In this document: piece by piece, positions 37,193 through 63,172 of the stretch
Layout of the letters: each line of letters starts with the position of its first letter
How positions within the stretch are numbered: the first letter of the stretch is position 1
DNA from: a virus
Lineage: Duplodnaviria > Caudoviricetes
DNA length: 64,000 nucleotides
IMG/VR virus record: IMGVR_UViG_3300033073_001516
Location: 87,747 to 151,746 of that record
Direction: 5' to 3' (one strand)
Program-made: the position numbers and the translations under genes
The notes under the pieces: generated by a model
Seen by the model: the letters and a program-made list of their open reading frames with translations, nothing else
Database searches by the model: none
Told to the model about the DNA's origin: nothing

Positions 37193-37480
37193 CTATTTTT
37201 GAGATTCATCGCTAGCTAATAACGATCGATACGCGCGCTCGGCGCGATCTCTAGCCCAGAACGTCGCGTCATTTTCTGACTTAAAGCGTCTGCTCGGCGT
37301 ACTCAGATCATCTCTATCTTTCACCGTTACTCGCGCGAAATAACAGTTGTTGATGGGGTCGGCGGTGATAACGACATGAACTCCCGGGAAGTCACGCCAG
37401 TTCATGGTATCAGGTCTAGGAGATTTTAGATCCCTACCGATCTCTTCTCTGATAAGCTTTCTGAGCAATGAGATTGTCAT
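37193..37480 (-). CDS. Hypothetical protein with IREE-type leader
   Basis: MTISLLRKLIREEI. Confidence 0.7.
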   Translation of the reverse strand: MTISLLRKLIREEIGRDLKSPRPDTMNWRDFPGVHVVITADPINNCYFARVTVKDRDDLSTPSRRFKSENDATFWARDRAERAYRSLLASDESQK

Positions 37481-37549
37481 AGTGATCTCTCGATCTCTTT
37501 GATATCTTTTATGCTGGATAGAATAGCACGCGCCACTTCGGGATCAGTA

Positions 37550-37846
37550 TTAGCGAGTTTCCTGACTATCAATTCTAGATCTTTTATCGCTCGTCTCGAC
37601 AGATATCTCGACCTTGCTGATTGGTTCTCGGATTGCAATCAAATCTCCAGATTGATTTCTGCTTATAACTATCAAGCTCTCTTGCGTCATAGGGCATTTT
37701 TCAAATTGAAGATCTAGATCGCCGTCCAACGGAGCTTTATAGATGAAATCGTTATTCTCGTAGTTCAGAACTGGATTATAAAAATCCACGTCAGACGTGA
37801 GCAAAAGGCTCACGAAAAGAGCGATGAACATAACTAAAATCTCCAT
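37550..37846 (-). CDS. Hypothetical protein with N-terminal hydrophobic segment
   Basis: 98 aa ORF behind an ATATTTA motif. Confidence 0.5.
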   Translation of the reverse strand: MEILVMFIALFVSLLLTSDVDFYNPVLNYENNDFIYKAPLDGDLDLQFEKCPMTQESLIVISRNQSGDLIAIREPISKVEISVETSDKRSRIDSQETR

Positions 37847-37921
37847 TAACGTAAATAAATATCGCAGCTTAGAGTCTAAATCTCTAAGCTGCGATTAAAT
37901 TTGCATGCTACGTGATGTATT

Positions 37922-38476
37922 TTAAGAATTTTTTTTCATAATTTCTTTCATGATCTTAACACGTTGCTTTGCTTTACGAAGCTTATCTTTCGGTCGCTCT
38001 ATCTCGGTGCAAAAAGCGATAGTGTGCTCAGCTGCTGATGCTTCGCGTTTCTCGAGAGACATTATTTTCTTGCTCTTCTTTAAAGCACCTATGATTCTTT
38101 CTGTCGATTTCTTAGCGTCTTTCATTTCATGAGGCTTCATTTTTTTTCCAAGCCCTCGAGGGTTGATTTGAAAAACGCCAAGCTCCCCTTCGGATCCGAC
38201 CGCTTCAGGGTTCAACTTACTTTCTGCGTAAGCATTGACGATAGCTCCCATGATCAAATTGTCAGAGAATCCATGAGATCTAAGCTTACGTTCAATTCCA
38301 CGAGCGATGTTAGCCTGATCGTCGGTCAAAACTAAATTGTTCACAACTGTGAACTCATAAGGCGGCGGCTCAGCTCTCGAAACTTCGCTTGGATACAGGG
38401 CGATTGCGCTAACTGAAATAAAGCACAATCCACGTACCAATCGCGAGAGATGATGCGTTAACAATTGCAAGTTCAA
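37922..38476 (-). CDS. Phage tail lysozyme-like protein (Phage_lysozyme2)
   Basis: GAIVNAYAESKLNP, GVFQ, FCTEIERP. Confidence 0.75.
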   Translation of the reverse strand: MNLQLLTHHLSRLVRGLCFISVSAIALYPSEVSRAEPPPYEFTVVNNLVLTDDQANIARGIERKLRSHGFSDNLIMGAIVNAYAESKLNPEAVGSEGELGVFQINPRGLGKKMKPHEMKDAKKSTERIIGALKKSKKIMSLEKREASAAEHTIAFCTEIERPKDKLRKAKQRVKIMKEIMKKNS

Positions 38477-38705
38477 GTCTTTCTCCTTTTGACTTTGCGT
38501 CCAGGTAAAAAAACATGTTGAACGCGTTGATTAATGGCAGAACAAATCCGAGCGAGGTCGCAATCAGGACTTCTTTATGGGCTAGGGCTATTGAGAATCT
38601 CGTCGCGAAGATGTTCGTGCACATAGAAAGTGCGAACACAGCTAGGAGACGAACGATTCTCTGCTTTAGTATGCTCCGAATGTCTGTTTCCATGCGAGAT
38701 CTCAC
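38409..38705 (-). CDS. Small multi-pass membrane protein
   Basis: Three hydrophobic segments; adjacent to the lysozyme-like gene. Confidence 0.55.
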   Translation of the reverse strand: MRSRMETDIRSILKQRIVRLLAVFALSMCTNIFATRFSIALAHKEVLIATSLGFVLPLINAFNMFFYLDAKSKGERLELAIVNASSLAIGTWIVLYFS

Positions 38706-39022
38706 TCATCATTGTCTGCCAATTTGTAATTATGCTTCTCACTGACTTGCGTCCATGCCCGTTGACGTACCTCCATCATCACGTGGCCACGCTTTGATCT
38801 GTTCGAGAGGCGCCTGATCCTCTTTTCGCTAAGGATATCCCTAAGAATTTTTCGAAACTTTCGACGACATCGACGAGATTCATCTTTTGTCATAGATTCT
38901 AGAGCTTCATCGATGCTTTTCGGTTTCTCGTCACGAAAGGCGCACGCGATCGTAGGGTGGATAATCCCAAGGTCAAGAGCGATTATGTCGCTGAAAATAT
39001 CGATCTGATTGTACGCGCTCAT
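38702..39022 (-). CDS. Hypothetical basic protein
   Basis: AGGAG RBS before MSAYNQ. Confidence 0.6.
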   Translation of the reverse strand: MSAYNQIDIFSDIIALDLGIIHPTIACAFRDEKPKSIDEALESMTKDESRRCRRKFRKILRDILSEKRIRRLSNRSKRGHVMMEVRQRAWTQVSEKHNYKLADNDE

Positions 39023-39034
39023 GCTTTCTCCTAG

Positions 39035-39079
39035 AAAAATACCGAGCTCCAACTAAAGTGAATGTTGGAGCTCGGTATT
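39035..39079 (-). terminator. Intrinsic terminator
   Basis: 16-bp inverted repeat AATACCGAGCTCCAAC followed by a U-run on the minus strand. Confidence 0.8.
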
Positions 39080-39293
39080 GCGTTTACTGACCACTAGCAC
39101 CGTGTGGACTTTCAACTGGACACAAATTTATCTGATTGCTGAAATCAATCGGCGCGATACTCCATTTTTAGAACCGGAGAGAACGCGGTCCCAACGCTGG
39201 ACATTTCAGACCCTACGTTGAATAATAGTATTTCTCTCGGATGCAAGACGATACAAGGTATTGCATCTAAGCTATCACTAGAATGATAGCATG

Positions 39294-39368: not shown

Positions 39369-39372
39369 AAGG

Positions 39373-40980: not shown

Positions 40981-42015
40981 ATGCAGAGCAATCTTAGAAA
41001 GCTTATCCGTCTGATGATCGAATCGGACGCGACTTTACCTTCTCCCCAGAACCTGAATCCAATCGACCCGCAAGCTATCAGAAGATCAAAAATGGATAGT
41101 TTAGCTGCCGAGGTGGCGAGTAAGCTTGATCTAGCCGATGTTCGATATTTGTCAAAGTCAAAGCGTCTCTACGGGGCTTACACTTTCTCGGCAGTCGATC
41201 ATAGAAACGAGAACGTTATTCTCAAAATTCAACCCGAAAATGAGCTGGCCGGCTATGTCAGAGCTCAGCAAATAATATCGAGGCTTCCTGATCGAGTGGC
41301 TCGTCATTTGCCGATGATTTACAAAGTTAGAACGCTGGAAGAGATAGGCGTGAAACCTCCAACTGACGAATTCGGGACCTCTGAGAACCTCGGTGTCATC
41401 GTGATGGAGCGCCTGGAAGAGCTACCCGGTAACATGTTCGATCTAATCACTCAACCAGCGACAAAGTCTATGAGATCTTTAGAATCGTTAGTTCGTGATC
41501 GACAGGCTTTCAACGATATGATAGACGAGGCTATGAAGAAGTCAGAACGCTCGATCGACTCTGCCATCAAAAATTCAGCCCGAAAAGTTGATCATGATGA
41601 AGAAGTTGAGCGTTTGAGAAGAATGCTGAGATCTGCTTCATACAGCCCCGAGGTTACCGACGATAGCGGTGGCATGATGATATCAGCCATCGACGGACTG
41701 AGCTCTGTTATCTGGGAGAAAGTGAACCTCTGGTGCAGAAATCTTGGGATAACCAAGCCGGGATCTATTCAATCTCTGACGCAAATGCTAATGAGCTCAA
41801 TGTCTACTCTTCTTGGAAGACGGGCAGTACCAAAAGAACCGACCCGTGACGTCGCTGGTCCTCTGGGCCGTACGAAAGGAATAAGAGAGCTCGTCAAAGC
41901 ACTAGATGACCTAAAGTCTATGAACATCAAGCCGTCCGACGTTCATGGAAACAACATCATGATCCGTCCCGAGACAGGTGAGCTTGTCCTAGCGGATCTA
42001 GGTCATTTCACCTGA
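40981..42015 (+). CDS. Protein-kinase-fold protein with leader motif
   Basis: VILKI, IVMERL, SDVHGNNIM, LADLG; N-terminus MQSNLRKLIRLMIES. Confidence 0.8.
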   Translation: MQSNLRKLIRLMIESDATLPSPQNLNPIDPQAIRRSKMDSLAAEVASKLDLADVRYLSKSKRLYGAYTFSAVDHRNENVILKIQPENELAGYVRAQQIISRLPDRVARHLPMIYKVRTLEEIGVKPPTDEFGTSENLGVIVMERLEELPGNMFDLITQPATKSMRSLESLVRDRQAFNDMIDEAMKKSERSIDSAIKNSARKVDHDEEVERLRRMLRSASYSPEVTDDSGGMMISAIDGLSSVIWEKVNLWCRNLGITKPGSIQSLTQMLMSSMSTLLGRRAVPKEPTRDVAGPLGRTKGIRELVKALDDLKSMNIKPSDVHGNNIMIRPETGELVLADLGHFT

Positions 42016-42232
42016 TCATCTCATCCAATATCTCCTCGATCATCTCACGAAGCTTCATCTTCTTGAAGTATTTCGCGATTTTTGCTCGAACGTCGGGCTC
42101 AACGATCACTCCGGGCTGATCGAGCATGTCAGTCTCACGACCGTAAGTGGGATCATGAGGGGCTCGAGTCTTCGCTTTCGGTGCTCTCGTGCTGTGACCT
42201 GGCGTTGACCTGTCCTTTTCAGTTCTCCACAT
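42008..42232 (-). CDS. Hypothetical protein
   Basis: AGGAG/GAGG upstream; C-terminal KLREMIEEILDE. Confidence 0.55.
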   Translation of the reverse strand: MWRTEKDRSTPGHSTRAPKAKTRAPHDPTYGRETDMLDQPGVIVEPDVRAKIAKYFKKMKLREMIEEILDEMIR

Positions 42233-42497: not shown

Positions 42498-44384
42498 TTA
42501 CGTCTGGGTGTAATCGCTGCAGAACTTTCTTTCAATTGCTGGAAGGTCGGTCTCACCTCGACGAGGCAGCATCTCAGCTCTCTCCATCACGGCGTTTGCC
42601 GCAACGGTAGCCTCCAGGTCAGCATTGTCCCAGACTTCAGAGAACAGACGCTTCACCACTCCACGCCGTGACTTGAAAAAGTGCTCCATGACCGTCATAT
42701 TGCGCGAGAAATTTGGATCCTTGCGATCCTTCTCAGTCTGGAGGCGTGAGGCGACGAGTGCCATCACAGCTAGCTCTGCACCGATGTCCACCAGTCGAGC
42801 AAGGATGAGCTGTCTCATTTCAAGCTTCGGTCCACGAAGAAGCATCTGGTGGAAGAGGGTGAGAGCGAGTCGACGTGTGTATCCATCCACCCAGCTGAGA
42901 TGACGCGATAGATTATCATCGAACTTATCAAATTTGTCAAAAATTGAGCCCACGACATTCGAGATATACCATTTCGGATAGATGAGAGCGCACTTACCGA
43001 TCACCTTGATCTTGTCCCATAACGTCGCTCCCTTCTTGAAGAGACCTCCAGCATTTCGGAGGTGACCGTCGAGAGCCTCACGGGCGATGAAGAGGTGCAT
43101 GACGTCCGTCGTCCCCTCCACGATCCGGTTGATCCGCGTGTCTCGGAGGACTCGCTCCATCGGGAATCCGACCTCTCCGCGACCCTCCACAGACTTCTCG
43201 GTCTCGAATCCGCGTCCACCTCGGAGCTGGAATGCCGCGTCAGCGACCTCCCAGGAGCGTTCACTGTTCCACATCTTGGCAGTGGCAGCCTCCATTCGGA
43301 TGTCGACGTTGTGCCGGTCACTGAGTGCCGCACCGTAGAGGGCGAGGGTCTCCATGGCGTAGGTCTGGCCTGCGATCTCTGCGAGCTTCTGGGCACCGGC
43401 CTCGTGGTTACCTACCGCCTTTCCCCACTGGACGCGGCTCTTCGCCCAAGAGGCCGAGAAGTCAAGGACATCCTTCGAGACAAATGCCGCTACCGCTGGG
43501 ATTCCCAATCGACCGTCATTGAGAGTGGTGAGCGCGAGCTTCAAGCCCTTCCCCTCACCGAGGATGACATTCTCTGCCGGAACCTTCACATTGCGGAACC
43601 GGATGAGACCGTTCTCGATGGCTCGGATGCCGAGGAATCGACAGCGATGGACGACTTCGAGACCCTCGGATCGACCTTCCACCACGAATGCCGTGATACC
43701 CTTTCGACCATCGTCAGAGACCGTACGGGCCATGACCACGTAGAGGTCAGCCAGGGTGCCGTTGGTGCACCAGAGCTTCTCGCCGTTGATGATCCAGGAA
43801 CCGTCGGGCTGCTTCACTGCCTCGGTGACCATGCTGGCCGGGTCGGAACCTGCACCTGGTTCCGTAAGAGCGAACGCTGAAAGCTCACCCTTGGCGATAC
43901 GAGGAAGCCACTTCTTCTTCTGCTCCTCGGTGCCGAAGAGTTTCAGGGGCTGGGGTACACCGATGGACTGGTGGGCTGAGAGGGTCGCCGCGGTTGAACC
44001 GCAGTACTTTGCCACCGCACCGAGAATCCGGACGTAGTTTGTCTGCGAGAGGCCGAGGCCACCGTACTCCTTCGGGATCTTGATACCGAAGAGTCCAAGC
44101 TCAGCGATACCCTTCCAGACATGCGGCGGGATCTCCTGAGCCTTATCGATCGCATCACCATCGAGATTATCCTTCGCCCAAGCATCAAACCTTGCGATGA
44201 TCTCATCCCCCGCCTCGCGATCAGCCACGCTTTGTTCTGGGAACGGATAGGAAAGCTCGATGTCCAGGTCGCCCATGAACATCGAACCCATGAAAGACTT
44301 TGACTTCCAATCCAGCTCACGACTCTCCTCAGCGACCTGGATCGACTTTGCTTCTTCAGACGTACGATTCTTATTCTCGATCAT
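42498..44384 (-). CDS. Acyl-CoA dehydrogenase (VLCAD/ACAD9-like long form)
   Basis: IPKEYGGLGL, AHQSIG, FALTEPGAGSD, NGEKLWCTNG, RIVEGT. Confidence 0.95.
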   Translation of the reverse strand: MIENKNRTSEEAKSIQVAEESRELDWKSKSFMGSMFMGDLDIELSYPFPEQSVADREAGDEIIARFDAWAKDNLDGDAIDKAQEIPPHVWKGIAELGLFGIKIPKEYGGLGLSQTNYVRILGAVAKYCGSTAATLSAHQSIGVPQPLKLFGTEEQKKKWLPRIAKGELSAFALTEPGAGSDPASMVTEAVKQPDGSWIINGEKLWCTNGTLADLYVVMARTVSDDGRKGITAFVVEGRSEGLEVVHRCRFLGIRAIENGLIRFRNVKVPAENVILGEGKGLKLALTTLNDGRLGIPAVAAFVSKDVLDFSASWAKSRVQWGKAVGNHEAGAQKLAEIAGQTYAMETLALYGAALSDRHNVDIRMEAATAKMWNSERSWEVADAAFQLRGGRGFETEKSVEGRGEVGFPMERVLRDTRINRIVEGTTDVMHLFIAREALDGHLRNAGGLFKKGATLWDKIKVIGKCALIYPKWYISNVVGSIFDKFDKFDDNLSRHLSWVDGYTRRLALTLFHQMLLRGPKLEMRQLILARLVDIGAELAVMALVASRLQTEKDRKDPNFSRNMTVMEHFFKSRRGVVKRLFSEVWDNADLEATVAANAVMERAEMLPRRGETDLPAIERKFCSDYTQT

Positions 44385-47101: not shown

Positions 47102-49303
47102 TTATTTAAACTTCAGCAGCCTGACCAGAAGAGCTTCGTAGAGAGGTGTCTGTTCCACGCTTTTATCATCGATCGAATCGAGATAAGCTGACATCTCTGA
47201 CTGAAATTCTGAGACGGCAGCACTTAGCTTCATGATCTGCGATTTTGCAAACTCGTACTTGATTCTCTTGGATTCGCGTAACCGATCTGCGTTGGGCGCA
47301 TCCGATCTCCTAATTTCTCCAAGCTTATCATACAGCTCGGAGAGTCCATCCTCAGCAGCTTTAGAGATCGCTTTTTTGTATTTCCTGTTGATCAGTTCCG
47401 CTTGCTGGCGCTGCTCAGCTGGGATCGATGTATCCCACCCAGGAACAAATTCGCTTCGCGTGAACGCATCGAATTCAATCTTGAGATATCCATCATTTTC
47501 GTTGAATTTTTCCGGATTGTCGCCGATTATGTCCTTGTAAATGCTGATCTCTGACATCGCTTCGGACACGATGCTCTGCAGCCGATCGAGAAGATCTCCT
47601 ACACCACCGAGATTAGCTTTCAAACCGCTGGTCTCCGGACGGCGTAAGTTCTTCTTATCGATTACCTTCAATCGCTCAGCCTCATCTTGCTCCTGAGAGC
47701 GCCTCTTTTCGATCGAGTATCTCAGTCGCAGGATATCGATCAGCCGTTTCTCACCGTGCTCAGGGTCTGATATTGTGTAATCGGCGCCGAGCTCCTTTGT
47801 CACAGGCACGACGAGTTGGATGAAACGTTCAAGAGGCACCGAGTTACGAAGAGCCCCAGAATCCGAAAGCATCATCAAAAATTTTGCCGCCTCGATGTCC
47901 TGCGACTCGATGCTGCCCTTCACGCTTGCGAAGAATGTTTCACAGAGTTTTATCGCAAACTTTGCTGCGATCGGATCCGACCCTGTGACCCATAATCTCG
48001 TGAGGAATTCCTGCATCCAGCTGAACTTACCGCCTGATCTGCTGACGAGAGCATCGATGATGGAATTATTACCAGCGAGATCATAGACGATCGCAATTTT
48101 GATCGGAAGATAAGCGGTGATTCTATCGTAGTTGCTTACGAACCAGGAAACAATCGCGGAGATCTCATCACGTAACCCGAGCTTATCAAGCGTTCCCCTC
48201 AGCTTATTTCCGATCATCCTGTAGTCACGACCAGCAATTTCTATGAGTTCAAAAGCTGCGGCGTCTTTGTCCGGAGTTGTCTTGAACTTACGGATCTTGA
48301 TTCTGATGCCTTCGACAATATCGTTGATTTTACTTTCGACCGCTTTCTTGTCGTGAGCATGAGATTTCTTTGAACTCTTCATGGGATTATCGAACTGACG
48401 CATCTCATCTATGATCGAAGTGTCCATGATGGCGATCTGATGCGGTTCATTCTTATGGACGAGACCTTCACCCGCGTCATCAACGAGAGCTTTGATTCCG
48501 GCCGTGATGAGGAGTCTTCGCCAGACTGAGATGTTTGAGCTCTTTACTCGCGATCCTGCCTCCGTTGCATTGTCAAAGTCTGAAGCAACTTTTGTGTTTG
48601 AGAGAGCTCTTGAGAGCGTCCAGATGATCTGCAATCGTCCAAGGCTGGATATTGAGCTCGAATCCTTCGGTAGGGTGTCATTGACACCAAACACTTTGTG
48701 ATGGCGGCCAGCTTGGACCAGCATCGATCTGAAAGATCTCTCCGGATTAGAGCTCCCGTCGTTCTGCTTGAACCATCCAAGAAGCTTGTCGATTGCTGAC
48801 CTGTAGGTGGAGTCGTCCATGCCGGTCGAGGTCTGGAACACGCCTGACATGTCATTGAAGCTGAAGAAGTTGATGTATGGAGCATCCGCAACAAACGGTA
48901 GACGGTAATCTATCGACGCGTATGGGTGCAGTTCGTCCGCTATCTCAGGCATCTCGAGAGCCGTTTCCATGTAACGCCCTCGTGTGAGATGCATGATCAT
49001 TTCTGGTGTGACAGGATACGCGTATAAGGCAAGAGGAGTATCGAACGGTGACGCTGGATTGATCCCAACCTTCTGGATCGAAGTCATGGTAAATCCATAC
49101 CTCACACGTCCGCGCGCGCCCTTTCGGGCGAGCTCAAGTCCGAACTGAGCGATCTGCTTTTCGGTGTCCTGTCGTCCCGATTTCTTGACGGGAACTCGTG
49201 GATCGTCAGCTGCGCTCAGCGCAGCTCGAGTGTCCGCGCGCCGCGCGCGGGACGACTCAAAGATCTCTTGAAGAACGATCTTCCTGATAAGCTTTCGATT
49301 CAT
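47102..49303 (-). CDS. Large hypothetical protein with leader motif
   Basis: Start moved to MNRKLIRKIVLQEIFES behind ATAATTA; N-terminal half has KVGINP.S.FDTPLALYAYP and DDAGEGLVHKNEPHQ motifs. Confidence 0.75.
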   Translation of the reverse strand: MNRKLIRKIVLQEIFESSRARRADTRAALSAADDPRVPVKKSGRQDTEKQIAQFGLELARKGARGRVRYGFTMTSIQKVGINPASPFDTPLALYAYPVTPEMIMHLTRGRYMETALEMPEIADELHPYASIDYRLPFVADAPYINFFSFNDMSGVFQTSTGMDDSTYRSAIDKLLGWFKQNDGSSNPERSFRSMLVQAGRHHKVFGVNDTLPKDSSSISSLGRLQIIWTLSRALSNTKVASDFDNATEAGSRVKSSNISVWRRLLITAGIKALVDDAGEGLVHKNEPHQIAIMDTSIIDEMRQFDNPMKSSKKSHAHDKKAVESKINDIVEGIRIKIRKFKTTPDKDAAAFELIEIAGRDYRMIGNKLRGTLDKLGLRDEISAIVSWFVSNYDRITAYLPIKIAIVYDLAGNNSIIDALVSRSGGKFSWMQEFLTRLWVTGSDPIAAKFAIKLCETFFASVKGSIESQDIEAAKFLMMLSDSGALRNSVPLERFIQLVVPVTKELGADYTISDPEHGEKRLIDILRLRYSIEKRRSQEQDEAERLKVIDKKNLRRPETSGLKANLGGVGDLLDRLQSIVSEAMSEISIYKDIIGDNPEKFNENDGYLKIEFDAFTRSEFVPGWDTSIPAEQRQQAELINRKYKKAISKAAEDGLSELYDKLGEIRRSDAPNADRLRESKRIKYEFAKSQIMKLSAAVSEFQSEMSAYLDSIDDKSVEQTPLYEALLVRLLKFK

Positions 49304-49317
49304 GATGGTAATTATAC

Positions 49318-50409: not shown

Positions 50410-50730
50410 TCAGGAGTTTGCATGATTCCTGATTTTTTCCACCAACTCTTTTACCGCATTCTCACTGTTTCCAACAACGCGATCGATCTCCAAGCTGTTG
50501 TGGTATCCGATCACGGTGGGAAGAGACATTACGTCAGCCTCGGCGGCGAAGTTTCTTGCATCATCGATGTCAACGTAAGCGAAAACAACGTCTGAATTAT
50601 CAACGGAGATCTTCTCGATCTTCGGCTTCAAGTGCTTGCAGGGCATGCACCACGATGCTCCGACCTGGACAACAACGTGAGAGTTGTTATCGATAAGATC
50701 TCGAATGTTATACTCATTACACAGCTTCAT
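50410..50730 (-). CDS. Thioredoxin
   Basis: ASWCMPCK, VDID, VMSLPT; start moved to MKLC. Confidence 0.9.
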   Translation of the reverse strand: MKLCNEYNIRDLIDNNSHVVVQVGASWCMPCKHLKPKIEKISVDNSDVVFAYVDIDDARNFAAEADVMSLPTVIGYHNSLEIDRVVGNSENAVKELVEKIRNHANS

Positions 50731-52488: not shown

Positions 52489-52863
52489 ATGCCAGTCAAC
52501 GTCAAGAGAATAATCCGTGAGGAACTCGCACGCATTCTAGAGGGTGACGTCGTCCACGTCAAGTTTGGTGGCGCGCAGAAGACAAAGGAACGCGAGCAGT
52601 CAAATTACCAGAGAGCTCTCGGAAAGGTCGTTGCTACTCTCGAAGAGATCATCAACAGTGAAGGAGCTGACATGGAGGACGACCAGATCGTTGAGCTCAC
52701 GAAGCTTCTCGATCACGTGACCGGTATGCAGGACGATGCTGCTGGTGAACCAGATGAGGAGGACGAGATGCCCTTCGGTCGTGGAGCTTCGGGCCGTGAG
52801 CGTGATGAGCTTGCAAGATTCAAGAAGTATATGAGCGACCGCGATAGCGACCGCGACTACTAG
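52489..52863 (+). CDS. Acidic hypothetical protein with leader motif
   Basis: MPVNVKRIIREELARILEG; ATACTTA and GAGG upstream. Confidence 0.8.
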   Translation: MPVNVKRIIREELARILEGDVVHVKFGGAQKTKEREQSNYQRALGKVVATLEEIINSEGADMEDDQIVELTKLLDHVTGMQDDAAGEPDEEDEMPFGRGASGRERDELARFKKYMSDRDSDRDY

Positions 52864-52876: not shown

Positions 52877-53584
52877 ATGCCGTCCGCGAAAGATTTCACG
52901 CGAGCATTCGAACGTGCGACAGAAAGATCATCGAGATACGATGAATTTAGAAGCATGCTTCAATCGCTCGAGGGCAGCCTGAATGCAGACTCAAAGTCAG
53001 CTTCAATTAAACTCAACACCGACAAAAAGGGATCGGACAGTAGAGTCGTTGAAGATGCTGTCCGTGAGAAATTCGGTGATGATTTAAAAAGAAGCAGATA
53101 CCCTGACGCTCTTTTCGGAAATTTGCCCGTAGAGGTGAAGCACACCACCTCGGGATTCGGAAAGCTACCCACCGATTCATACGGATTGACAAATACCGAT
53201 CAAAAATGGTATCTTTTCGTCAAAGGATCGGTTGATAGGGTCAAAGATGAGATCTTCACCGCTTGGATGATGAGATCTGATGAGCTGTATCGGGAGATGA
53301 TATCGCTGCTTCGCGGAACAAATCAAGAGTCTCTATTCCCTCATAAGGATCTCAGCGCGATCGACCCGCAGTCTGACACAGCACTGAAAGATATAGAGCA
53401 GGAGATACACGACATCGCTAGTTCGTTGTCGTTGTCGATCCTCAGAAAAGCGAAAGGTCAATCCGAAAAGGACGTACCCGAGACGATGAGCCTCAGCAAG
53501 AGAGTGGGAATCAACAGGGTGAGATTCGATGTTAAGTTCGAATCTAAGCTTCGTAAGATAATCGCCGATATAATCAACGATTAG
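52877..53584 (+). CDS. PD-(D/E)XK restriction-endonuclease-like protein
   Basis: YPDALFGNLPVEVKHT; C-terminal FESKLRKIIADIIND. Confidence 0.55.
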   Translation: MPSAKDFTRAFERATERSSRYDEFRSMLQSLEGSLNADSKSASIKLNTDKKGSDSRVVEDAVREKFGDDLKRSRYPDALFGNLPVEVKHTTSGFGKLPTDSYGLTNTDQKWYLFVKGSVDRVKDEIFTAWMMRSDELYREMISLLRGTNQESLFPHKDLSAIDPQSDTALKDIEQEIHDIASSLSLSILRKAKGQSEKDVPETMSLSKRVGINRVRFDVKFESKLRKIIADIIND

Positions 53585-55235
53585 TCTTGGAGGTGTCATC
53601 CTCTACGTTCTCTTCACCTTGCTCATCTTCTGCAACAGCAAAATTTGGATTTCCCATAGCTGCGAGTCGTTGTACGATCTTTTTGTACAGCTCACTGCTC
53701 TCTGGAATGTTTGAAAGGGGCGCTGCGACGGGAATGCCAGACCTTCTACGACCCGTGTAGTTCTTCTCGTGAGTGTGCTCACGTGCTTCCTGGCTTCTTA
53801 TGACTAGAAGCGGAGCTCCGTAAATCGCTATGGGGGGATTCGGCATGTTCGATATGCGATCAAAAGCCCGTCGCATCTCACGTAGTGTGATGCCCGATTC
53901 CATGTTATCATCTGCTATGATGGCAATATGCAGGAATTCTGGAAGCGTGCTCTCATCAGCCCGCACGAAGTCAGATATGTGCTTTCGTTGCATTGAGGGC
54001 ACCACACTGATCGAAAAATGCGGCTTGTTTCCGATTTTCTGCTGCCACTTTGGAACATCGGAAGACGTTTTTTCTTCAAAATCTTTGATAAGATCGCTGA
54101 CGGTCACAAGTTGTGGGACACCGCGATTGCGGTTCCAAGATTTCCATCTTTTCTCTATGTAAGGACTGAGTCCCGACAGATCATCTTGAGTAATCGTCGA
54201 AAGATCAAGCTCGAGCTCACCCAAGGGATTGAGATTAGCTCCGAGCAAGTTCAGCTGATCGGTGAACTGCTTAATGAGGCTTCGATCAGCTTTTATTCTC
54301 GGAGATTGAGACGCCGGAATTTTGCCAAAAGAGCGATTAACGTCAACGTCAGTGGATGTTAAGCGACCGGCGCTCACTGAGCTCAAGCTTGGAATCTTGA
54401 ACTCGTTGATCTTTGAGATGCACTCGTTCACTCTCTTGCGAACTTTCTTATACGCATTAATTACGTAATCTGGAAACACACCGGGCTTCGCTTCGTTGGC
54501 CTCTATCCTCTTTTTCGCGACCTCTCGGGCCGCCATGATCGCATCTTTATAATTTCTAACGTTGAATAGAGGGTAGAAATCACCGACCGCCCTCGGGTCT
54601 CTGAAAAGCGAATCGAAAATGTTTTTTATTTCGATGGCGCATTCTTCATAAGCTTGCGCTGAAAATCTTTCTTTGACAGATCTAGCGCGATCTTTAAGCC
54701 TAGACTTGATATAGGTCGCGACGTTCTGCCGAAGGCTTTCCGCGTAATCGGCTGCGTGTTGAGAGGACGAGGGCGTCACGTAGATCGAGATTCTCGCATC
54801 TTTTGCTTCGACCGGAAGTTCTCCATCCCTTATCTTTCTGTCTATATCATCGATAATCGACTTCGCGATAATCTGTGATCCATCAGAGATGTATGCCTGC
54901 ATGTCTTGCTCGGGAACCGTGTAGACAGTGTCAGTCTTACCCTTCAGGGCTTCGAGAACGTCTTCAAGGTGAGACGGGTATCTCTCGTCATCACGTCCGG
55001 GAGCATTATTGCTAAATGAAAAAGCCGAGCGGATTGGAAACCCGCCCGGAAAATCCTGACTGAATTTTTCGTCCGATGTGTACGCGCTGCTGCCCTTTTT
55101 TACGAAGTGAACATCATTGAGATCCCAGGAGAGAGGAATCTGATCACCAGGCTTGACACCTGATAGGTCTCCAATCTTAAATCCTTCATTGACAAGGCAA
55201 GATCTGACAATATTTCTGAGAGCTCTTTCGGTCAT
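53574..55235 (-). CDS. Phosphoribosyltransferase-fold protein with leader motif
   Basis: IAIIADDNMESGITL PRPP-loop-like motif; N-terminus MTERALRNIVRSCLVNEG. Confidence 0.55.
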   Translation of the reverse strand: MTERALRNIVRSCLVNEGFKIGDLSGVKPGDQIPLSWDLNDVHFVKKGSSAYTSDEKFSQDFPGGFPIRSAFSFSNNAPGRDDERYPSHLEDVLEALKGKTDTVYTVPEQDMQAYISDGSQIIAKSIIDDIDRKIRDGELPVEAKDARISIYVTPSSSQHAADYAESLRQNVATYIKSRLKDRARSVKERFSAQAYEECAIEIKNIFDSLFRDPRAVGDFYPLFNVRNYKDAIMAAREVAKKRIEANEAKPGVFPDYVINAYKKVRKRVNECISKINEFKIPSLSSVSAGRLTSTDVDVNRSFGKIPASQSPRIKADRSLIKQFTDQLNLLGANLNPLGELELDLSTITQDDLSGLSPYIEKRWKSWNRNRGVPQLVTVSDLIKDFEEKTSSDVPKWQQKIGNKPHFSISVVPSMQRKHISDFVRADESTLPEFLHIAIIADDNMESGITLREMRRAFDRISNMPNPPIAIYGAPLLVIRSQEAREHTHEKNYTGRRRSGIPVAAPLSNIPESSELYKKIVQRLAAMGNPNFAVAEDEQGEENVEDDTSKTNR

Positions 55236-55259
55236 CGCGTAACTAATTATTCGATTCTC

Positions 55260-56983: not shown

Positions 56984-57220
56984 CTAGCCCAGGTTCACCC
57001 TTATATCAGTGATCCTGCTGCGAGATTTTTCTGTTGGAGTCCCAGCTGCGTCGGTCTCTAGAACTGCGAGTGCCCACATCTTACCGTGATTCGGGCGAAT
57101 CTTCATGATATCCGACCTGATTCTCATCAGGAGCTCCTCATCTTCATGAGGGACGGAACCTGGGATCGTCGAGTAATAGGTCGTATTGGTGATCGTGAAG
57201 AGGCAATATACTGGATTCAT
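56984..57220 (-). CDS. Hypothetical protein
   Basis: Overlapping start/stop with the upstream gene. Confidence 0.45.
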   Translation of the reverse strand: MNPVYCLFTITNTTYYSTIPGSVPHEDEELLMRIRSDIMKIRPNHGKMWALAVLETDAAGTPTEKSRSRITDIRVNLG

Positions 57221-57972
57221 TCGACAATATTAGTCACATGTCGGCGGAATTTTATCGATTCCGAGATTTCAATGAAGTTTTCTTCCTCTTCCTCTTCCTG
57301 CATGCTCGGAACGTGGGAGATGTATGTTCCCTGGGCAGAGAGCTCATAATTTGACGCGGGAGACCCTTGAAAATGATCCTTGACATCGCTCTCACGCACG
57401 ATGGTGATCCTTCTCTCGGCCAGTCCGGTGCTCTTTGCGATCTTTCCAAGCTGCTTCCAGACCTGACCGGGTTTCTTGTCCACGTCCAGATTCGGGTTGT
57501 CGATCTTCGCCTTTTCCTCTGCAGCACGATCGAGACCGCTCATGTCAGGAACGCTCTGGACGGTTCGCAGGTTCGGATTATCCTTGACCATCCTATTGAG
57601 CTCATCCCCCGACGCAGGATCTTTCGCAGCGATGTTAAGCATCGTTGCAGCAGCTTTCGCGCGCTCTTTCGGATCCTTAGCTCCCTTCGTGCTCGGATCG
57701 GTCCCGAACCCCTTGAGATAGGCTTTCTTGTCGTCCGACGAGAGCTTCGATATCTCTTTCTTCGCAGTGAAGATGCTTCCACTTGTCTTTGATGCGGCGT
57801 CTTTTACATGCTTGTTCGCGATCTCGATGCTCTTCGCCCTGACAGCGCTTTTCACGTCGGCTGGCATGCTGACGGGATTACCGGCGCCCGCCTCACCACC
57901 CAGGACGCCCTCATCTGTTCTTGAGAGCTCCTCACGTATGATCTGTCTAAGCATGGATTCGTCAAGCAACAT
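57217..57972 (-). CDS. Leader-motif protein
   Basis: MLLDESMLRQIIREELSRTDEG. Confidence 0.8.
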   Translation of the reverse strand: MLLDESMLRQIIREELSRTDEGVLGGEAGAGNPVSMPADVKSAVRAKSIEIANKHVKDAASKTSGSIFTAKKEISKLSSDDKKAYLKGFGTDPSTKGAKDPKERAKAAATMLNIAAKDPASGDELNRMVKDNPNLRTVQSVPDMSGLDRAAEEKAKIDNPNLDVDKKPGQVWKQLGKIAKSTGLAERRITIVRESDVKDHFQGSPASNYELSAQGTYISHVPSMQEEEEEENFIEISESIKFRRHVTNIVE

Positions 57973-58017
57973 TTAGAGTTCCGTTGTGTTAACGGTAAAT
58001 ATACTCGACTAATCAGC

Positions 58018-58614
58018 TCAAATGGCGAAGTAAGCGCCGCGAGTATGCGCGACTCTGTCAAGGTATTCCTCGCTGATCCCTGTCAACGAGAATCTCATAT
58101 CTAGGGCATCAAAAAGCGTAGATCGCCTCATCATGACTGGGCTGGAGAACTTACCGATCACAATTTTCGTTCTGTCTCGCTCAGTCTCCGCATAGACCCT
58201 GACGGAAACATTGACTTTTTCAGCCAATCTAGGATCGAAATTATCGATTGGACCATCTTCGGCAAACTTGGAAATGCTCACCTGCATTTCTCCGTTTCGA
58301 TATCCGAAGTCATGAAGGCTCATTCCTTCATACCCGACGTCCTTCACTGGAAATGGAACATACCACGTATTATTCGCGCGTGTCCCCTCACGAAGCACGT
58401 TCTTCCAGATCCACTCAGCTGTGCCTGGACGATCTGGATTCATAATGACGCTGGCAACGTCGGGTTGACCGCCAACGCGGAGGAGCTCCACGACCATTCG
58501 ACCATTGAGATCCCTTAACTCAATCTTGGATCTGAGAGGCGGTTCCGACACTTCGCGGAGACGTCGAAGCTCTGAGCGAATAATTGAACGCAGCGTGCTC
58601 TCGTTGATTCTCAT
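58018..58614 (-). CDS. Leader-motif protein
   Basis: MRINESTLRSIIRSELRRLRE. Confidence 0.8.
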   Translation of the reverse strand: MRINESTLRSIIRSELRRLREVSEPPLRSKIELRDLNGRMVVELLRVGGQPDVASVIMNPDRPGTAEWIWKNVLREGTRANNTWYVPFPVKDVGYEGMSLHDFGYRNGEMQVSISKFAEDGPIDNFDPRLAEKVNVSVRVYAETERDRTKIVIGKFSSPVMMRRSTLFDALDMRFSLTGISEEYLDRVAHTRGAYFAI

Positions 58615-58623: not shown

Positions 58624-59478
58624 CTAGTTGACAGCGGTTGCGACGAGCTTGCCCCTGATGTTGCTACGAACTTCATCTGCGATGCGTTTGATATAAGGCT
58701 TCAGGGCCTGCAGAGCCTCAACGTACTTCGGAGCTGCGCCAGCTGGATTTACCTGGAATCCACCCTTCGTCAGGAGTTCCTGGCACACGATCTCGGCTAG
58801 AGCATCGGATGTTGTAGCGATCGCGCCGTCCCTCGCTGATGCCATCGTGAGAGCGCCCACCCATTTGCTCTCATTCTCACCCGTGATAGCCTCGATTTCA
58901 GGATCAACTTCACCATATTGAAGGAACATGTCCGAAAGCTCCCGATACAGCGGGCTGATACGATCCACGGAGTCGCCGCTGTCGAACATCGAATGAAAGA
59001 TCATCCACGGTGTTGCCATGAAGCCCTTGTCGGTCGACATCGAGGAGTAGAGGACAACAACGTCATCACCACCAACTCGGGCGGGAGATTCGTATCCGAG
59101 ACGTTCGAGAGTCTCGATGCCATCGGGCACAAGAGGCGTGAGTCGAACTCGATTCTGGGTGTAGCCTGATGGATCGTCGTCAACGCCTGCTGCTCGTCCT
59201 ACACCGATGAGGGGTGCGATCCAGACATTACCCGGAATGTTCGCGAGGTGCTTCTCAGCGAGAGCTTTGAAACGTCCTGAACGGGCGTACTTCTCCGCGC
59301 CCTTACGATTCGCTCCTCCGCCCTCTCCCGCGCCGAAGCTCGTATGCGTCATGTCATCGTCATCATCCTCGTAACCATCACGCCCGATCCCCAGGCTTCC
59401 AGCATACGGCATCTCCTGAAGGGCCCGTCGCGCCTCCTCACGGATGATCTTCCTAAACCTGCTCTCTGTGATTCTCAC
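58624..59478 (-). CDS. Leader-motif protein
   Basis: MRITESRFRKIIREEARRALQE. Confidence 0.8.
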   Translation of the reverse strand: MRITESRFRKIIREEARRALQEMPYAGSLGIGRDGYEDDDDDMTHTSFGAGEGGGANRKGAEKYARSGRFKALAEKHLANIPGNVWIAPLIGVGRAAGVDDDPSGYTQNRVRLTPLVPDGIETLERLGYESPARVGGDDVVVLYSSMSTDKGFMATPWMIFHSMFDSGDSVDRISPLYRELSDMFLQYGEVDPEIEAITGENESKWVGALTMASARDGAIATTSDALAEIVCQELLTKGGFQVNPAGAAPKYVEALQALKPYIKRIADEVRSNIRGKLVATAVN

Positions 59479-59551: not shown

Positions 59552-60190
59552 TCAAGCCGCTGCGGTGGCAAGATCCTTCTTGAATTTCTCGTAGGTGGTC
59601 TTTATCTGGGCCTGGTTCTGGGCTGTGGCGACCTGGGGAGCCACCTCAGCGATCTTCGCGATGATCTCACCCGTCTCTATGTCGCCGAGAGCTTTCGCGA
59701 GAGCTTTTACGGCCGGTCCCGCGTTCCTAGCGAGACCGTCCCTGTAGGCGCGCCCGACGATACCCAAGGCATCTCCCACGACGGGAAACATCGCCAAGGT
59801 TCCAAAGATGACGCCCATCCAATCCGCAGCAGCTGCAGCCTTGACGATCTGAACCTGAGCGACGCCAATGCTGAGGGCTATCCCGATCCCGGGAATACCG
59901 TCCAGCGCAGCCCCGAGCGCGGTAAATGCCCAATCGATGGGCTTGCTGTTCCACCCAGCTGAAAGAGCTTGGGAAACCGTAGGTGTAATGTCCACTTGCC
60001 CCTTCGCGATCTGGGCCGCGCCCATCGTCTCAGCGCCACCGAGGGTTCGCGCAGCTACATACTTCAGCTTGCCCATCGTGTCGACGGAAGCGTCCTTCAT
60101 AGTTGGCTCGGAGAAGACGTCGAGGGGGCTGGCCTCCCTGATGAGCTCCTCACGGACGATTTGGCGAAGTTTATTTTCAGTGATGAGCAT
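59552..60190 (-). CDS. Leader-motif protein with hydrophobic helical hairpins (pre-toxin-TG-like)
   Basis: MLITENKLRQIVREELIRE; LDGIPGIG and LAMFPVVGDAL. Confidence 0.8.
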   Translation of the reverse strand: MLITENKLRQIVREELIREASPLDVFSEPTMKDASVDTMGKLKYVAARTLGGAETMGAAQIAKGQVDITPTVSQALSAGWNSKPIDWAFTALGAALDGIPGIGIALSIGVAQVQIVKAAAAADWMGVIFGTLAMFPVVGDALGIVGRAYRDGLARNAGPAVKALAKALGDIETGEIIAKIAEVAPQVATAQNQAQIKTTYEKFKKDLATAAA

Positions 60191-60223: not shown

Positions 60224-61030
60224 TTATCGTCTGCGAAGACCGAGCATCTGACGAACATCATCGTCGGACATCTTCTGCGGCTTTCTCTCCGGAGGCGGAG
60301 CAGCGACTCCACCGACCCTTCTGATCGTCCGAGCGGGTGAAGCGGGAATTGTCTCAGGTTCTGGACGTCGAGCAGGAGCGATTTGCTCCTCGCGCTCTGC
60401 TCTCCGAGCATCACGCTCTGCTCTCCGTTCATCTTTCTCAGCCTGCTCATCACGTCCCTTGTAGTAGTACTTCAGGGCGGCGCTCGCGGCCGCGACGGGA
60501 TCAAACATCCGCGCGCCGCCGAGCTTGATGAGGAAAGCTAGGCCGACGTCGCGAAGCCACTCGGTACGATTCGAGCCCGCTTGCTGCCACCTGATGTCTA
60601 CAAGCGGAATGGTAGAGTTTCTGACAGCTCCAGGTACCCCGAGAGCAACGGGATCCTTGTGGTGGATCGACATGATAACGCCGGGCATGGTGTACAGGTT
60701 GTTGATCTTGTCGAGAGTCGGAATGATAACGTGATCACCATCGTTAAAGATGATGTCGTTCTTGCCGAACAGCGTCTTGATCTCCCCAGTTTTTGTCTCG
60801 TGATCTTTCTTCCAAGATCTCGTCATCTGACCGTCATTGTACCAGCTGTCGAACGCAGGTGATCCTCCGACGAACGGGTTTCGATCTGCAGAGATGCTTC
60901 GCTTGCTATGAGACCAGACAACGTCATCCGTCGATCTCACATTATAACCGTGCCTGTCTCTTACAACCTCGGAGAGCGTCTCGAGCTCCTCCCGGACGAT
61001 ACTACGCAGCGCTCTCTCACTGATTCTCAT
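60224..61030 (-). CDS. Leader-motif protein
   Basis: MRISERALRSIVREELETLSE. Confidence 0.8.
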   Translation of the reverse strand: MRISERALRSIVREELETLSEVVRDRHGYNVRSTDDVVWSHSKRSISADRNPFVGGSPAFDSWYNDGQMTRSWKKDHETKTGEIKTLFGKNDIIFNDGDHVIIPTLDKINNLYTMPGVIMSIHHKDPVALGVPGAVRNSTIPLVDIRWQQAGSNRTEWLRDVGLAFLIKLGGARMFDPVAAASAALKYYYKGRDEQAEKDERRAERDARRAEREEQIAPARRPEPETIPASPARTIRRVGGVAAPPPERKPQKMSDDDVRQMLGLRRR

Positions 61031-61181
61031 GAAACTCGCTCCAACGGATCATAAATATAACGCTTGCTTGAAACGTGGGGGAGCTTCCGGCCCGGGGCAC
61101 TTTTGGGCGCAGTCACCCGCAGGGGGCAATTGGCAACCGAAAATCCCAACGGGGAAAATTTCAAACGCATGTCTCTCACGC

Positions 61182-61212: not shown

Positions 61213-61230
61213 CCCTCGACCATCGATCGA

Positions 61231-61773
61231 TCAGCGTTCGGTGAGGAACGTCTGAACCTGGTGCGCAGCGATCTCGCCGACGCTCGCCATGTCGCCGCTC
61301 TCTGTGTCCTCGAACTTATCGTGCATGAAGGGCTCGAGAGCCTTCACACCGCGGGTGAACATGTCCCAGGCACGCTCGAGATCGGGTGAACCCTCGAACT
61401 CGTAGCCGCTGTTGCTCACCAGCCAACGACCATCGTCGTGGCTCTCGCGGATCGTACGCTTGCCAGCGCGTCGACGGGACTCCTCGAGGCCGAGCTTGCG
61501 GGCGACATCCATCGGGATATCATCGATGTACTGCGATGTGCCCTCGGGGCTGACGAAGTAAACCTTGACAACATCGCCCACGTTGCGGAAACGGACCACA
61601 GAGTCGAGGTGGGACTGGGGGCGACGACCGCCGATGCGGTCGGCGAGGCGCTCCTCACCTGCCTTGTTAAGGTCGGCCGTGAGGCGAAGAAGCGTCATGC
61701 GTGTGCTCTCACTAACAACGTTCTTGGTCTCTTCCCTGATGATCTGACGGATCCTGCTCTCTGTGATACGCAT
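61231..61773 (-). CDS. Leader-motif protein, two-module chimera
   Basis: MRITESRIRQIIREETKNVVSE; C-terminal module shared with 62873-63172. Confidence 0.85.
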   Translation of the reverse strand: MRITESRIRQIIREETKNVVSESTRMTLLRLTADLNKAGEERLADRIGGRRPQSHLDSVVRFRNVGDVVKVYFVSPEGTSQYIDDIPMDVARKLGLEESRRRAGKRTIRESHDDGRWLVSNSGYEFEGSPDLERAWDMFTRGVKALEPFMHDKFEDTESGDMASVGEIAAHQVQTFLTER

Positions 61774-61789
61774 CTTAAAATGAACTCCT
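61738..61789. repeat. 52-bp exact direct repeat (copy 2 at 62736-62787) spanning RBS and leader codons
   Basis: gatgatctgacggatcctgctctctgtgatacgcatcttaaaatgaactcct occurs twice. Confidence 0.9.
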
Positions 61790-61840
61790 GTGTGAATCTA
61801 ACTATAGCGATTAGGGTGAAAATTCACCCGAAGATGAGGT

Positions 61841-62170
61841 TTATTCGTCACGATCGGCGTCGCGACGCTCACGTTCCCAGCGGAGGAAATCGCCCCTCAT
61901 GAAGCGGTCCAGCTGCGCGGTCGCCTCGTCCCTCGCCTCGTCGGGTCCGAAATCACCCGAGCTGATCGCGGTGTCGACGAGCGCGTCCCAGAGCCTGTCG
62001 GCGGCCGGACCCTCAGGATCGGCGATCGTCGCGTCGAGGAGATCGTCCGGGATGTCAGCGAGGACCCAGCGATCGTCCCCACGGGGCTCAGCCCGGGCGA
62101 CGCTCTCGCGGAGGACCCGACGGGCCTCCTCCCTGATGATCCGACGTAACCTGCTCTCTGTCAATGCCAT
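61841..62170 (-). CDS. Leader-motif protein
   Basis: MALTESRLRRIIREEARRVLRE. Confidence 0.8.
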   Translation of the reverse strand: MALTESRLRRIIREEARRVLRESVARAEPRGDDRWVLADIPDDLLDATIADPEGPAADRLWDALVDTAISSGDFGPDEARDEATAQLDRFMRGDFLRWERERRDADRDE

Positions 62171-62270
62171 GGTAAATCTCTCCTGCATACGTGTCTAAAT
62201 ATACGCGAAGCAGCGCTCGGGTGCAAAAAATCGGGGGCGGAAGCCCACCCCCGAAGCTAGAATCCGTGGA

Positions 62271-62771
62271 TCAATTCATCGCATTAAAGCGCGTCGCGAT
62301 CGCATCTGCGATCGCCCCAGCAATTTCAGCGTATCCCTTGTTCTGGGATTGAAGGCGCGTAATGATACCTTCAAATTGCTTTTGGTTGTGCATCTCATTA
62401 AGAACAGCGATAAGCTTCTCGGGATTCGAGATAGCAATTCTCATCTTGTACGTCATCGCCGGCACGCTCCCGAGGCCAGAGCTAACAGCCTTTATAACCA
62501 CATCGCGGACGCCCGGTATACTTGCTGTCAGGCGAAAAGCGGGATTGTACTTCAATATGAAATCGGCGATAGTGGTGGAAATCTGCGTAATTTCCTGCGG
62601 GCTCATGTTTCCTGTGGCAACCTTAGTCGCCGCGTTAGCTAGCGCGGCAGGAGCCTGCTGGACTGCCCGGTCGATCGCAGCGCCTGCAGCTTGAGCGTTG
62701 GGTTGCTCGGACAGAACGCGACGAGCCTCCTCACGGATGATCTGACGGATCCTGCTCTCTGTGATACGCAT
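62271..62771 (-). CDS. Leader-motif protein
   Basis: MRITESRIRQIIREEARRVLSE. Confidence 0.85.
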   Translation of the reverse strand: MRITESRIRQIIREEARRVLSEQPNAQAAGAAIDRAVQQAPAALANAATKVATGNMSPQEITQISTTIADFILKYNPAFRLTASIPGVRDVVIKAVSSGLGSVPAMTYKMRIAISNPEKLIAVLNEMHNQKQFEGIITRLQSQNKGYAEIAGAIADAIATRFNAMN

Positions 62772-62872
62772 CTTAAAATGAACTCCTACACTAGTCTAAT
62801 TATGTTGGTCCAACTGAAGTTGACCCAAAAATCGGGGGGCTTCCGCCCCCCCGACGCTCGGTCTCGGGACGA

Positions 62873-63172
62873 TCAGCGCTCGGTGAGGAAGGTCTGCGCC
62901 TGGTGAACTGCGATCTCACCGACGCTCGCCATGTCACCCGACTCGGTGTCCTCGAACTTGACGTCCGCGAATCTCTTGAGGTTGCCCACGGCGGTCGTGA
63001 ACTCGTACCACGCGTTCTCCACGTCGCTCGGTGCGTCCTCGAGCTCGTAGCCGACATCGCTCACGAGCCAGCGGCCGTGCTCGCCCATCTCACGGAGCGT
63101 GCGCTTGCCAGCGAGGGCACGAGCTGCCTCCTCGCGGATGATCTGCCGGATTCTCTTCTCATTCATTGTCAT
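62873..63172 (-). CDS. Leader-motif protein
   Basis: MTMNEKRIRQIIREEAARALAGKRTLRE. Confidence 0.8.
   Translation of the reverse strand: MTMNEKRIRQIIREEAARALAGKRTLREMGEHGRWLVSDVGYELEDAPSDVENAWYEFTTAVGNLKRFADVKFEDTESGDMASVGEIAVHQAQTFLTER

Follow-up and report, generated by a model that had tools for sequence, protein, structure and literature searches.

A conserved N-terminal leader on unrelated proteins of uncultured T4-type large phages, a candidate capsid-targeting tag

In the last 64 kb of the 151,746-bp IMG/VR viral contig IMGVR_UViG_3300033073_001516 (the whole 64,000-nucleotide stretch is called the window), 14 open reading frames (ORFs) encode proteins that begin with the same leader peptide and continue with different bodies. 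The leader starts as M-[RK]-I-T-E-S-x-L-R-x-I-I-R-E-E and is usually followed by [LIV]-x-E. By analogy with the capsid targeting sequence (CTS) of phage T4, and from a matching cleavage motif, the leader is probably a two-part N-terminal address tag that would dock proteins on the prohead core, be clipped after Glu, and leave its cargo retained in the head and probably ejected. The proposal builds on a tag that is modular, broadly distributed and conserved at the protein level, on a prohead protease gene in the same genome, on a match between the leader ends and the capsid protein site, and on a promoter box shared with virion genes. From these observations we infer core binding, cleavage, presence in the virion and injection.

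The leader, its end and the head protease

The sequence-only reading of the window had listed 14 leader ORFs, and all were recovered with the starts and N-termini that it gave. A loose regular expression run over the six-frame translation of the whole contig gave 15 matches, including 12 of the 14 leaders, each within 7 codons of a start codon. The suggested scan of the contig with a hidden Markov model (HMM) of the leader found 15 copies at 17.0-31.6 bits, and the next best match scored 9.4 bits. The fifteenth copy, missed earlier and located outside the window, is the N-terminus of a 150-amino-acid (aa) ORF (MALTRSDLKDIVKECLIEILME/G, the slash marking the predicted cut; G000:C1, about 48.9-49.35 kb, G000 being the source contig) directly after the protease gene. 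The 9.4-bit match is the following head-module ORF of 101 aa (...LTPALLRRIILEEKKK). The tandem array of nine leader genes at 57.2-63.2 kb is as first described. Bodies claimed to be unrelated proved so in an all-against-all BLASTP comparison with the first 25 residues removed, except for one pair (61231-61773 and 62873-63172), in which the C-terminal 74 residues are 65% identical (E 6e-29). The [LIV]-x-E endings are also as listed, except that the ORFs starting at 37480 and 57972 have none after the helix.

For the anatomy of the leader, 171 distinct tagged proteins of 71-741 aa were assembled, which represent about a dozen lineages; their bodies form 110 BLAST families, 91 of them singletons. 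In an alignment anchored on the conserved Leu, information content is high from -7 to +7 (M-[RK]-I-T-[EK]-x-x-L-R-x-I-I-R-E-E), falls to a moderate level between +8 and +14 ([LIA]-x-R-[LV]-L-x-E), and has reached background at +15 and beyond. Met is located at -7 in 92 of the 95 families whose sequence reaches that position. An [LIVM]-x-E ending at +10 to +28 is found in 85% of families, with a peak at +13/+14, versus 26% in downstream control windows of equal width; the residue following the motif Glu is mostly S, G, A, M or Q. In the lineage of contig G005 the spacer is variable in length and [LI]-N-E followed by S or A is retained, as would be expected if the helix and the cut site had separable functions. 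For two families, AF2 models contain a detached N-terminal helix (residues 5-20 and 3-15), a low-confidence junction (17-22) and then a separate domain.

The tag is about 70% identical across phages whose capsid proteins are 40-70% identical, and varies far less between lineages than the clade's capsid protein itself does. Because the tag is kept despite this capsid drift, its binding partner must be very constrained. At the conserved Arg positions the codons AGA, AGG, CGT, CGC and CGG are all used, and the Leu and Ile codons vary too; since the Arg codons vary freely, it is the peptide, not the RNA, that is under selection. The cargoes turn over rapidly between related phages.

The T4-type head module of the source contig is located on the minus strand, beyond the window limits, in the order large terminase, portal, 295-aa ORF, prohead protease, ORFs of 150, 101, 181 and 199 aa, a 577-aa ORF at the scaffold position, and major capsid protein. 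Precomputed Pfam labels on near-identical contigs read, in that order, Terminase_6N, Portal_T4, Peptidase_S77, Gp23 and Phage_T4_gp13. The protease is of the T4 gp21 type (Peptidase_S77, 90 bits), and the gp21-like enzyme predicted from the leaders is thus encoded in the genome. Peptidase_S77 was also found in contigs G001, G006-G009 and G012 and in LR756508, an uncultured phage of 484 kb, and the gene is present in every tested clade member whose contig includes the head region. In LR756508 and at G006:C1 the S77 match is split in two within one ORF of about 575 aa (156507-158102 of LR756508.1; 88475-89962 of the G006 contig), in place of the 206-211 aa seen elsewhere; this arrangement points to an insertion of about 350 residues, an intein or an extra domain, in the prohead protease.

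Leaders had been expected on scaffold or core proteins, and leader-like N-termini do occur on the head-module proteins right after the protease; in LR756508 they are found on many ORFs that flank the protease gene on either side. Of 25 profile matches in LR756508, 9 lie within about 13 kb of the protease gene, and all but one of the 25 are at 143-243 kb. The end of the leader also corresponds to a site in the major capsid protein. In an alignment of capsid N-termini, FLTE/AEIGG of T4 gp23 occupies the same column as LLRE/SNAL in the source contig and LLKE/AS in LR756508, and the Glu is invariant; this is Glu65 of gp23, after which we take gp23 to be cut, the database record of gp23 noting only cleavage by gp21. 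Among 78 clade capsid proteins the aligned site reads [LVI]-L-[RK]-E, then S, A, Q or V. The commonest leader endings are VLRE, LLRE, LIRE and ILKE; the tetrapeptide at the end of the tag is therefore also that of the predicted capsid maturation site. The earlier claim that conservation ends at hydrophobic-x-Glu agrees with this predicted site of the same clade. All predictions of the sequence-only reading that are open to sequence analysis had the outcome it expected.

Distribution of the leader and its gene cassettes

The sequence-only reading had suspected that the leader is widespread in uncultured large phages, and profile, pattern and HMMER searches agree. When 5.8 billion proteins were searched with a leader profile, about 75 proteins other than self were obtained. 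They are 75-741 aa long, none has a Pfam domain on record, and nearly all start with MRITESRIRQIIREEARRVLRE or a variant and continue with differing bodies. IMG/VR contains at least 599 instances of the pattern [IL]R[QRK]IIREE. Five other viral contigs contain 9-24 leader copies each, mostly in tandem arrays; LR756508 contains 25, and in a marine Tara contig 14 copies, of the MKITKRQLKRIIREE type, are packed into 8 kb. An exhaustive HMMER search of 1.84 billion cluster representatives from public metagenomes gave 7,653 proteins at E <=0.001, a lower bound on the number of clusters. Nine leader proteins from NCBI sources are annotated at most as hypothetical proteins. No paper printing the motif was found by full-text search, and a topical search returned no description of a shared leader in large phages.

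The phage of the source contig (CheckV, about 45% complete; 19 tRNA genes) belongs, judged by its capsid protein, to a distant T4-type lineage of which no close relative is in culture. In the phage collection its capsid protein comes nearest to those of Microcystis phage Mel-JY01 (35% identity) and LR756508 (about 52% over 60% of the protein), followed by Rhodothermus RM378 and the Flavobacterium 'immuto' phages. The link between leader and capsid type was followed in 19 contigs, each 63 kb or longer and encoding a capsid protein 63-70% identical to that of the source contig. Leader matches were found in 13 of these 19, with 13 copies apiece in the two whose completeness is 75% or more; contigs without a leader match are 20-24% complete, except G009 (52%). 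The S77 protease was found in five of five clade contigs tested. Leader profiles were blank in immuto, RM378, the uncultured LR756511, XacN1, RsoM2USA, Xoo-sp13, P-HM1 and T4, and Mel-JY01, with a single weak match (E 0.05), was counted as the ninth leader-free phage outside the clade (eight of the nine are cultured). Because the profiles are blank in these outside phages, the tag is read as clade-specific and not as a generic helix. A tblastn search of the cultured-phage collection with the 22-aa leader and a two-leader protein gave no match, a search so insensitive that it missed LR756508 as well.

Three related contigs stop in or just past leader arrays: the source contig (window 57.2-64.0 kb), G001 (168.8-171.5 of 171.5 kb) and G012 (124-129 of 132 kb). 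Repeated blocks of leader and terminator probably break the assemblies, and the leader copy numbers are therefore lower bounds.

Leader genes form units of promoter, leader, cargo and terminator. The sequence-only reading had placed most of them behind an ATANTTA motif; an exact ATA[ATG]TTA is located upstream of 8 of the 14 (55235, 57972, 59478, 61030, 61773, 62170, 62771 and 49303), near-variants precede 40981, 52489 and 63172, and 58614 and 37480 have no box and look co-transcribed. The box is depleted in the contig, with 33 copies against about 81 expected from block shuffles, and 19 of the 33 are within 80 nt upstream of a gene start on the same strand. Genes preceded by the box include those for the tail sheath, a tape-measure-like protein and a fibre-like structural protein, the scaffold-position gene, the 101-aa head gene and leader genes. 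The T4 late promoter is TATAAATA, which the box resembles. ATA[ATG]TTA is a candidate late-promoter box for the clade, and its distribution suggests that leader genes may be co-expressed with virion genes.

Proposed mechanism and alternatives

The first part of the tag, residues 1 to about 18 (M-[RK]-[IL]-[TS]-[EK]-x-x-L-[RK]-x-I-[IV]-[RK]-E-E-x-x-R), would form a four-turn amphipathic helix from Met1 and attach the freshly synthesized protein to the scaffolding core while the prohead assembles. The second part, [LIV]-[LIV]-x-E, usually ends at residue 21-22, precedes a small or polar residue and would be the site where the gp21-family prohead protease removes the tag. The freed cargo would stay in the head and probably leave with the DNA. 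With a late-type promoter box that the cassettes appear to share with virion structural genes, and with their uniform layout, such genes could therefore be gained, lost, recombined and fused in frame while keeping the address.

In T4, N-terminal propeptides of 10-19 residues target internal proteins to the core; the first 10 residues of IPIII are enough to load foreign proteins and are removed by gp21, and C-terminal propeptides exist too, as in Alt (PMC9026906). The T4 internal proteins are diverse and united only by the CTS (PMC3012670, PMC9026906). The 'swappable effector arsenal' of the sequence-only reading is in this respect an idea already present in T4 reviews, and its effector functions found no support in the cargoes: none of the 14 leader proteins was assigned to a family in Pfam and PHROG scans, 40981 gave a weak kinase hint, and the two modelled cargoes have no known fold. 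Like the CTS of IPI, IPII, IPIII and Alt, the leader is a peptide starting at Met1 on unrelated proteins with a hydrophobic-x-Glu end, cleavage being predicted here from the motif. In both systems a protease of the gp21 family is accompanied by a portal and a capsid protein of T4 type, and in both the cargo set varies between related phages (PMC9026906, PMC3012670). The principle of a capsid-targeting peptide is thus known from T4. What is new is a tag that, unlike the T4 CTS, has about 22 residues and a predicted four-turn helix, is carried by 13-25 genes per genome where T4 has a handful, is highly conserved between freshwater and marine phages, and occurs on thousands of unannotated clusters.

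Other systems share single features with this one. The accounts of phiKZ, 201phi2-1 and SPN3US in PMC9026906 and PMC10052503 describe many head proteins cut after Glu by a diverged gp21 homologue, with targeting roles proposed for the giant-phage propeptides and redundant cleavage sites. The phiKZ motif is S/A-X-E, in contrast to [LIV]-x-E here, and those accounts mention no leader shared by unrelated proteins, whereas one leader is here reused on thousands. The PeSLs, as presented in PMC2839356 and PMC4122927, are promoter-terminator cassettes that mediate modular shuffling in hyperplastic regions of T4-like phages. They resemble the present units in that conserved regulatory motifs flank small variable genes within plastic T4-type regions. 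PeSLs are DNA motifs; unlike them, the conserved unit here adds a peptide, and its promoter box is common to virion structural genes.

Several observations weigh against the address-tag proposal. No sequence similarity between the leader and the T4 CTS (MKTYQEFIAE) could be detected, and the profile is blank in the T4 genome; by sequence, it is analogous to the CTS and not demonstrably homologous. No family was matched by the 577-aa scaffold-position protein in Pfam and PHROG scans. Contig G009 has the protease and no leader match, and four array-bearing contigs (G002-G005) are without the head region and give no test of the protease link. About 15% of families have no [LIVM]-x-E after the helix, among them the best-conserved one, 37193-37480, which looks like a core component rather than a cargo. 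The T4 late sigma factor gp55 was not found in G000, G001 or LR756508, in a single-sequence query that is uninformative. No isolate or proteome of the clade was found, and loading, cleavage and injection are steps that we infer. The T4 internal proteins are basic and DNA-associated (PMC3012670, PMC9026906), in contrast to the leader cargoes, which are mostly acidic (median isoelectric point 4.9; 69% below 6 and 15% above 8.5).

This acidity also favors an unlikely alternative, in which the tag does target the prohead core but the proteins are core or scaffold parts that are degraded or expelled at maturation, like T4 gp22, gp67 and gp68. Small head-module proteins beside the protease have leader-like N-termini in both G000 and LR756508, and the 95-aa and 150-aa families are as well conserved as core components would be. 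An essential assembly set, however, would not be expected to comprise the 110 body families and 91 singletons of 71-741 aa with fast turnover, and at least one body contains a folded alpha/beta domain in its model. It is similarly improbable that the helix is a binding module unrelated to the capsid, recognized by a host protein, a nucleic acid or a tag-modifying phage enzyme, and stays on the mature proteins. Members without a cleavage motif after the helix would fit such a module, but it leaves unexplained the fixed distance from Met1 (92 of 95 families), the loss of conservation after Glu, the identity with the capsid site, and the clustering round the protease gene. No non-leader gene is conserved beside the arrays of six lineages, thioredoxin and deaminase being common to few, and no radical-SAM or RiPP-like modifying enzyme is conserved across these neighbourhoods.

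Recruitment of a chaperonin (GroEL) by the leader is very improbable. The N-terminus of T4 gp23 directs proteins to GroEL (Snyder and Tarkowski 2005, as cited in PMC10052503), and Cpn60 genes occur in clade members G006, G007 and G009. Cpn60 is missing, however, from LR756508 with its 25 leaders and present in the leader-free immuto, and the Cpn60 family model has no match in G000 or G001; since Cpn60 and the leader do not co-occur, a phage GroEL was rejected as partner. The host's own GroEL would still be a possible partner. Least credible is conservation at the nucleic-acid level, with the leader as a cassette for translation initiation or recombination that encodes a peptide without a role in itself. 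The promoter-leader-cargo-terminator units and the tendency of contigs to break within arrays would suit it, but the many synonymous codons at the conserved Arg, Leu and Ile positions, with both Arg codon families in use, led to its rejection, and the peptide is kept across lineages whose capsid proteins have drifted as far as described above.

A broader form of the address-tag proposal is more tentative, and we regard it as possible but somewhat short of probable: that one 22-residue helical tag labels at least 7,600 protein clusters of freshwater and marine T4-type large phages for capsid loading, that in-frame chains of leader, cargo, leader and cargo are cut only at the tag ends, and that the helix may also work at the C-terminus.

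Many marine metagenome ORFs contain two or three leader-cargo units in one uninterrupted frame (table 11). Examples are P0093, P0094, about 110 of the 150 best HMMER matches, and loci L043:160-768 and L044:95-1270. Internal leaders keep an ATG and a Shine-Dalgarno-like stretch just upstream (e.g. GGAGGGC ATG), and Met starts 89 internal copies. These ORFs appear to be in-frame fusions of cassettes, which a protease cutting at leader ends would resolve only partly.

Leader-like helices were also seen at C-termini: in a head-module ORF (L002:9342-9941, minus strand; ...MSRLRRLIRAIHDEQ..., 6.9 bits), by eye in an ORF of LR756508, in the window at 42008-42232 (minus strand; ...KLREMIEEILDEMIR), and in an L022 ORF from 9404 (plus strand; ...DKLREIVRSEIKNILS). 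The HMM scores of such helices are only 4-7 bits. They might be C-terminal propeptides, as in T4 Alt.

If the tag works as proposed, it would be a sequence-only marker of capsid-carried proteins, possibly delivered at infection, in uncultured large aquatic phages. In T4 this class includes anti-defence and host-takeover factors, and the thousands of tagged families would be by far the largest known set of the kind. Naming the partner of the tag would inform the study of T4-type core assembly, and a portable tag of about 22 residues might be used to package foreign proteins in non-model phages, as the T4 CTS is now.

Leader genes of the window and their neighbours

The leader genes of the window are listed in Table 1.

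Table 1. Leader ORFs and associated features of the window. A slash marks the predicted cut; scores are those of the leader HMM.
Feature	Position	Strand	Length (aa)	Leader sequence	Score (bits)	Remarks
Leader ORF	37193..37480	-	95	MTISLLRKLIREEIGRDLKSP...	28.5	Short leader form; no post-helix [LIV]-x-E
Leader ORF	40981..42015	+	344	MQSNLRKLIRLMIE/S...	21.6	
Leader ORF	47102..49303	-	733	MNRKLIRKIVLQEIFE/S...	17.0	Length from ATG at 49303; weakest of the 15
ATAATTA box	49309..49315	-				5 nt before the start codon (49303) of the 733-aa ORF
Leader ORF	52489..52863	+	124	MPVNVKRIIREELARILE/G...	24.1	Orthologues on other contigs (P0010, P0013, P0014)
Weak candidate ORF	52877..53584	+	235	...KLRKIIADIIND (extreme C-terminus)	4.8	Leader-helix-like; not established
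Leader ORF	53574..55235	-	553	MTERALRNIVRSCLVNE/G...	23.2	ATAATTA box 55244-55250
Leader ORF	57217..57972	-	251	MLLDESMLRQIIREELSRTDEG...	28.1	First of the nine-gene tandem; ATATTTA box 57996-58002
Leader ORF	58018..58614	-	198	MRINESTLRSIIRSELRRLRE/V...	22.2	No box of its own; 9 nt after the stop of the upstream gene
Leader ORF	58624..59478	-	284	MRITESRFRKIIREEARRALQE/MPYAGSLG...	28.1	GTG start
Leader ORF	59552..60190	-	212	MLITENKLRQIVREELIRE/A...	28.0	
Leader ORF	60224..61030	-	268	MRISERALRSIVREELETLSE/V...	21.0	ATATTTA box 61052-61058
Leader ORF	61231..61773	-	180	MRITESRIRQIIREETKNVVSE/S...	26.8	ATAGTTA box 61799-61805
Leader ORF	61841..62170	-	109	MALTESRLRRIIREEARRVLRE/S...	27.2	ATATTTA box 62196-62202
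Leader ORF	62271..62771	-	166	MRITESRIRQIIREEARRVLSE/Q...	29.6	Nearest to the family consensus; ATAATTA box 62797-62803
Leader ORF	62873..63172	-	99	MTMNEKRIRQIIREEAARALAGKRTLRE/M...	31.6	Longer spacer ahead of L-x-E

The ORF at 37193-37480 belongs, by family alignment, to a conserved family of 95-108 aa and not to the variable cargoes. Its AF2 family model has a helix at 3-15, a disordered stretch at 17-27 and a small alpha/beta domain, for which VIA-align gave Z <=5.6, a generic small alpha/beta arrangement. By alignment, the cargo family of 58624-59478 and its leader are conserved as a unit in three or more further phage lineages. Its AF2 model has a helix at 5-20, low confidence at 17-22 and 34-56, and then an alpha/beta domain; Foldseek searches of PDB and BFVD with this model returned only uncharacterised phage proteins and no known fold. 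The hint of a kinase in the body of 40981-42015 is below threshold (Pkinase E 0.078; PHROG kinase E 0.007), and a sequence search of solved structures gave no match for it. The 733-aa protein matched no Pfam or PHROG family; an ART-PolyVal lead at 0.80 in an Atlas search in which all scores were <=0.84 was too weak to be used.

Thioredoxin is the only non-leader gene found beside arrays in more than two of the compared regions. It is located near leader arrays in three lineages: at 50410-50826 of the window (minus strand), in the L024 ORF at 8161 (plus strand) and in the L032 ORF at 11276 (plus strand).

Other genes of the window include a trypsin-like peptidase at 36509-37186 (plus strand; Trypsin_2, E 1e-10), whose N-terminus resembles, by eye, a lipoprotein signal, and a phage tail lysozyme/SLT protein at 37922-38476 (minus strand), immediately upstream of the first leader ORF. 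An acyl-CoA dehydrogenase complete with its three domains is encoded at 42498-44384 (minus strand; E 1e-30 to 1e-24 per domain), and adjoining it at 44858-45844 (minus strand) is a di-haem cytochrome c peroxidase (CCP_MauG, E 2e-51); these two are unusual auxiliary genes for a phage and are located amid tRNA genes. The final 800 bp or so of the window have a G+C content of 62% and contain no convincing gene.

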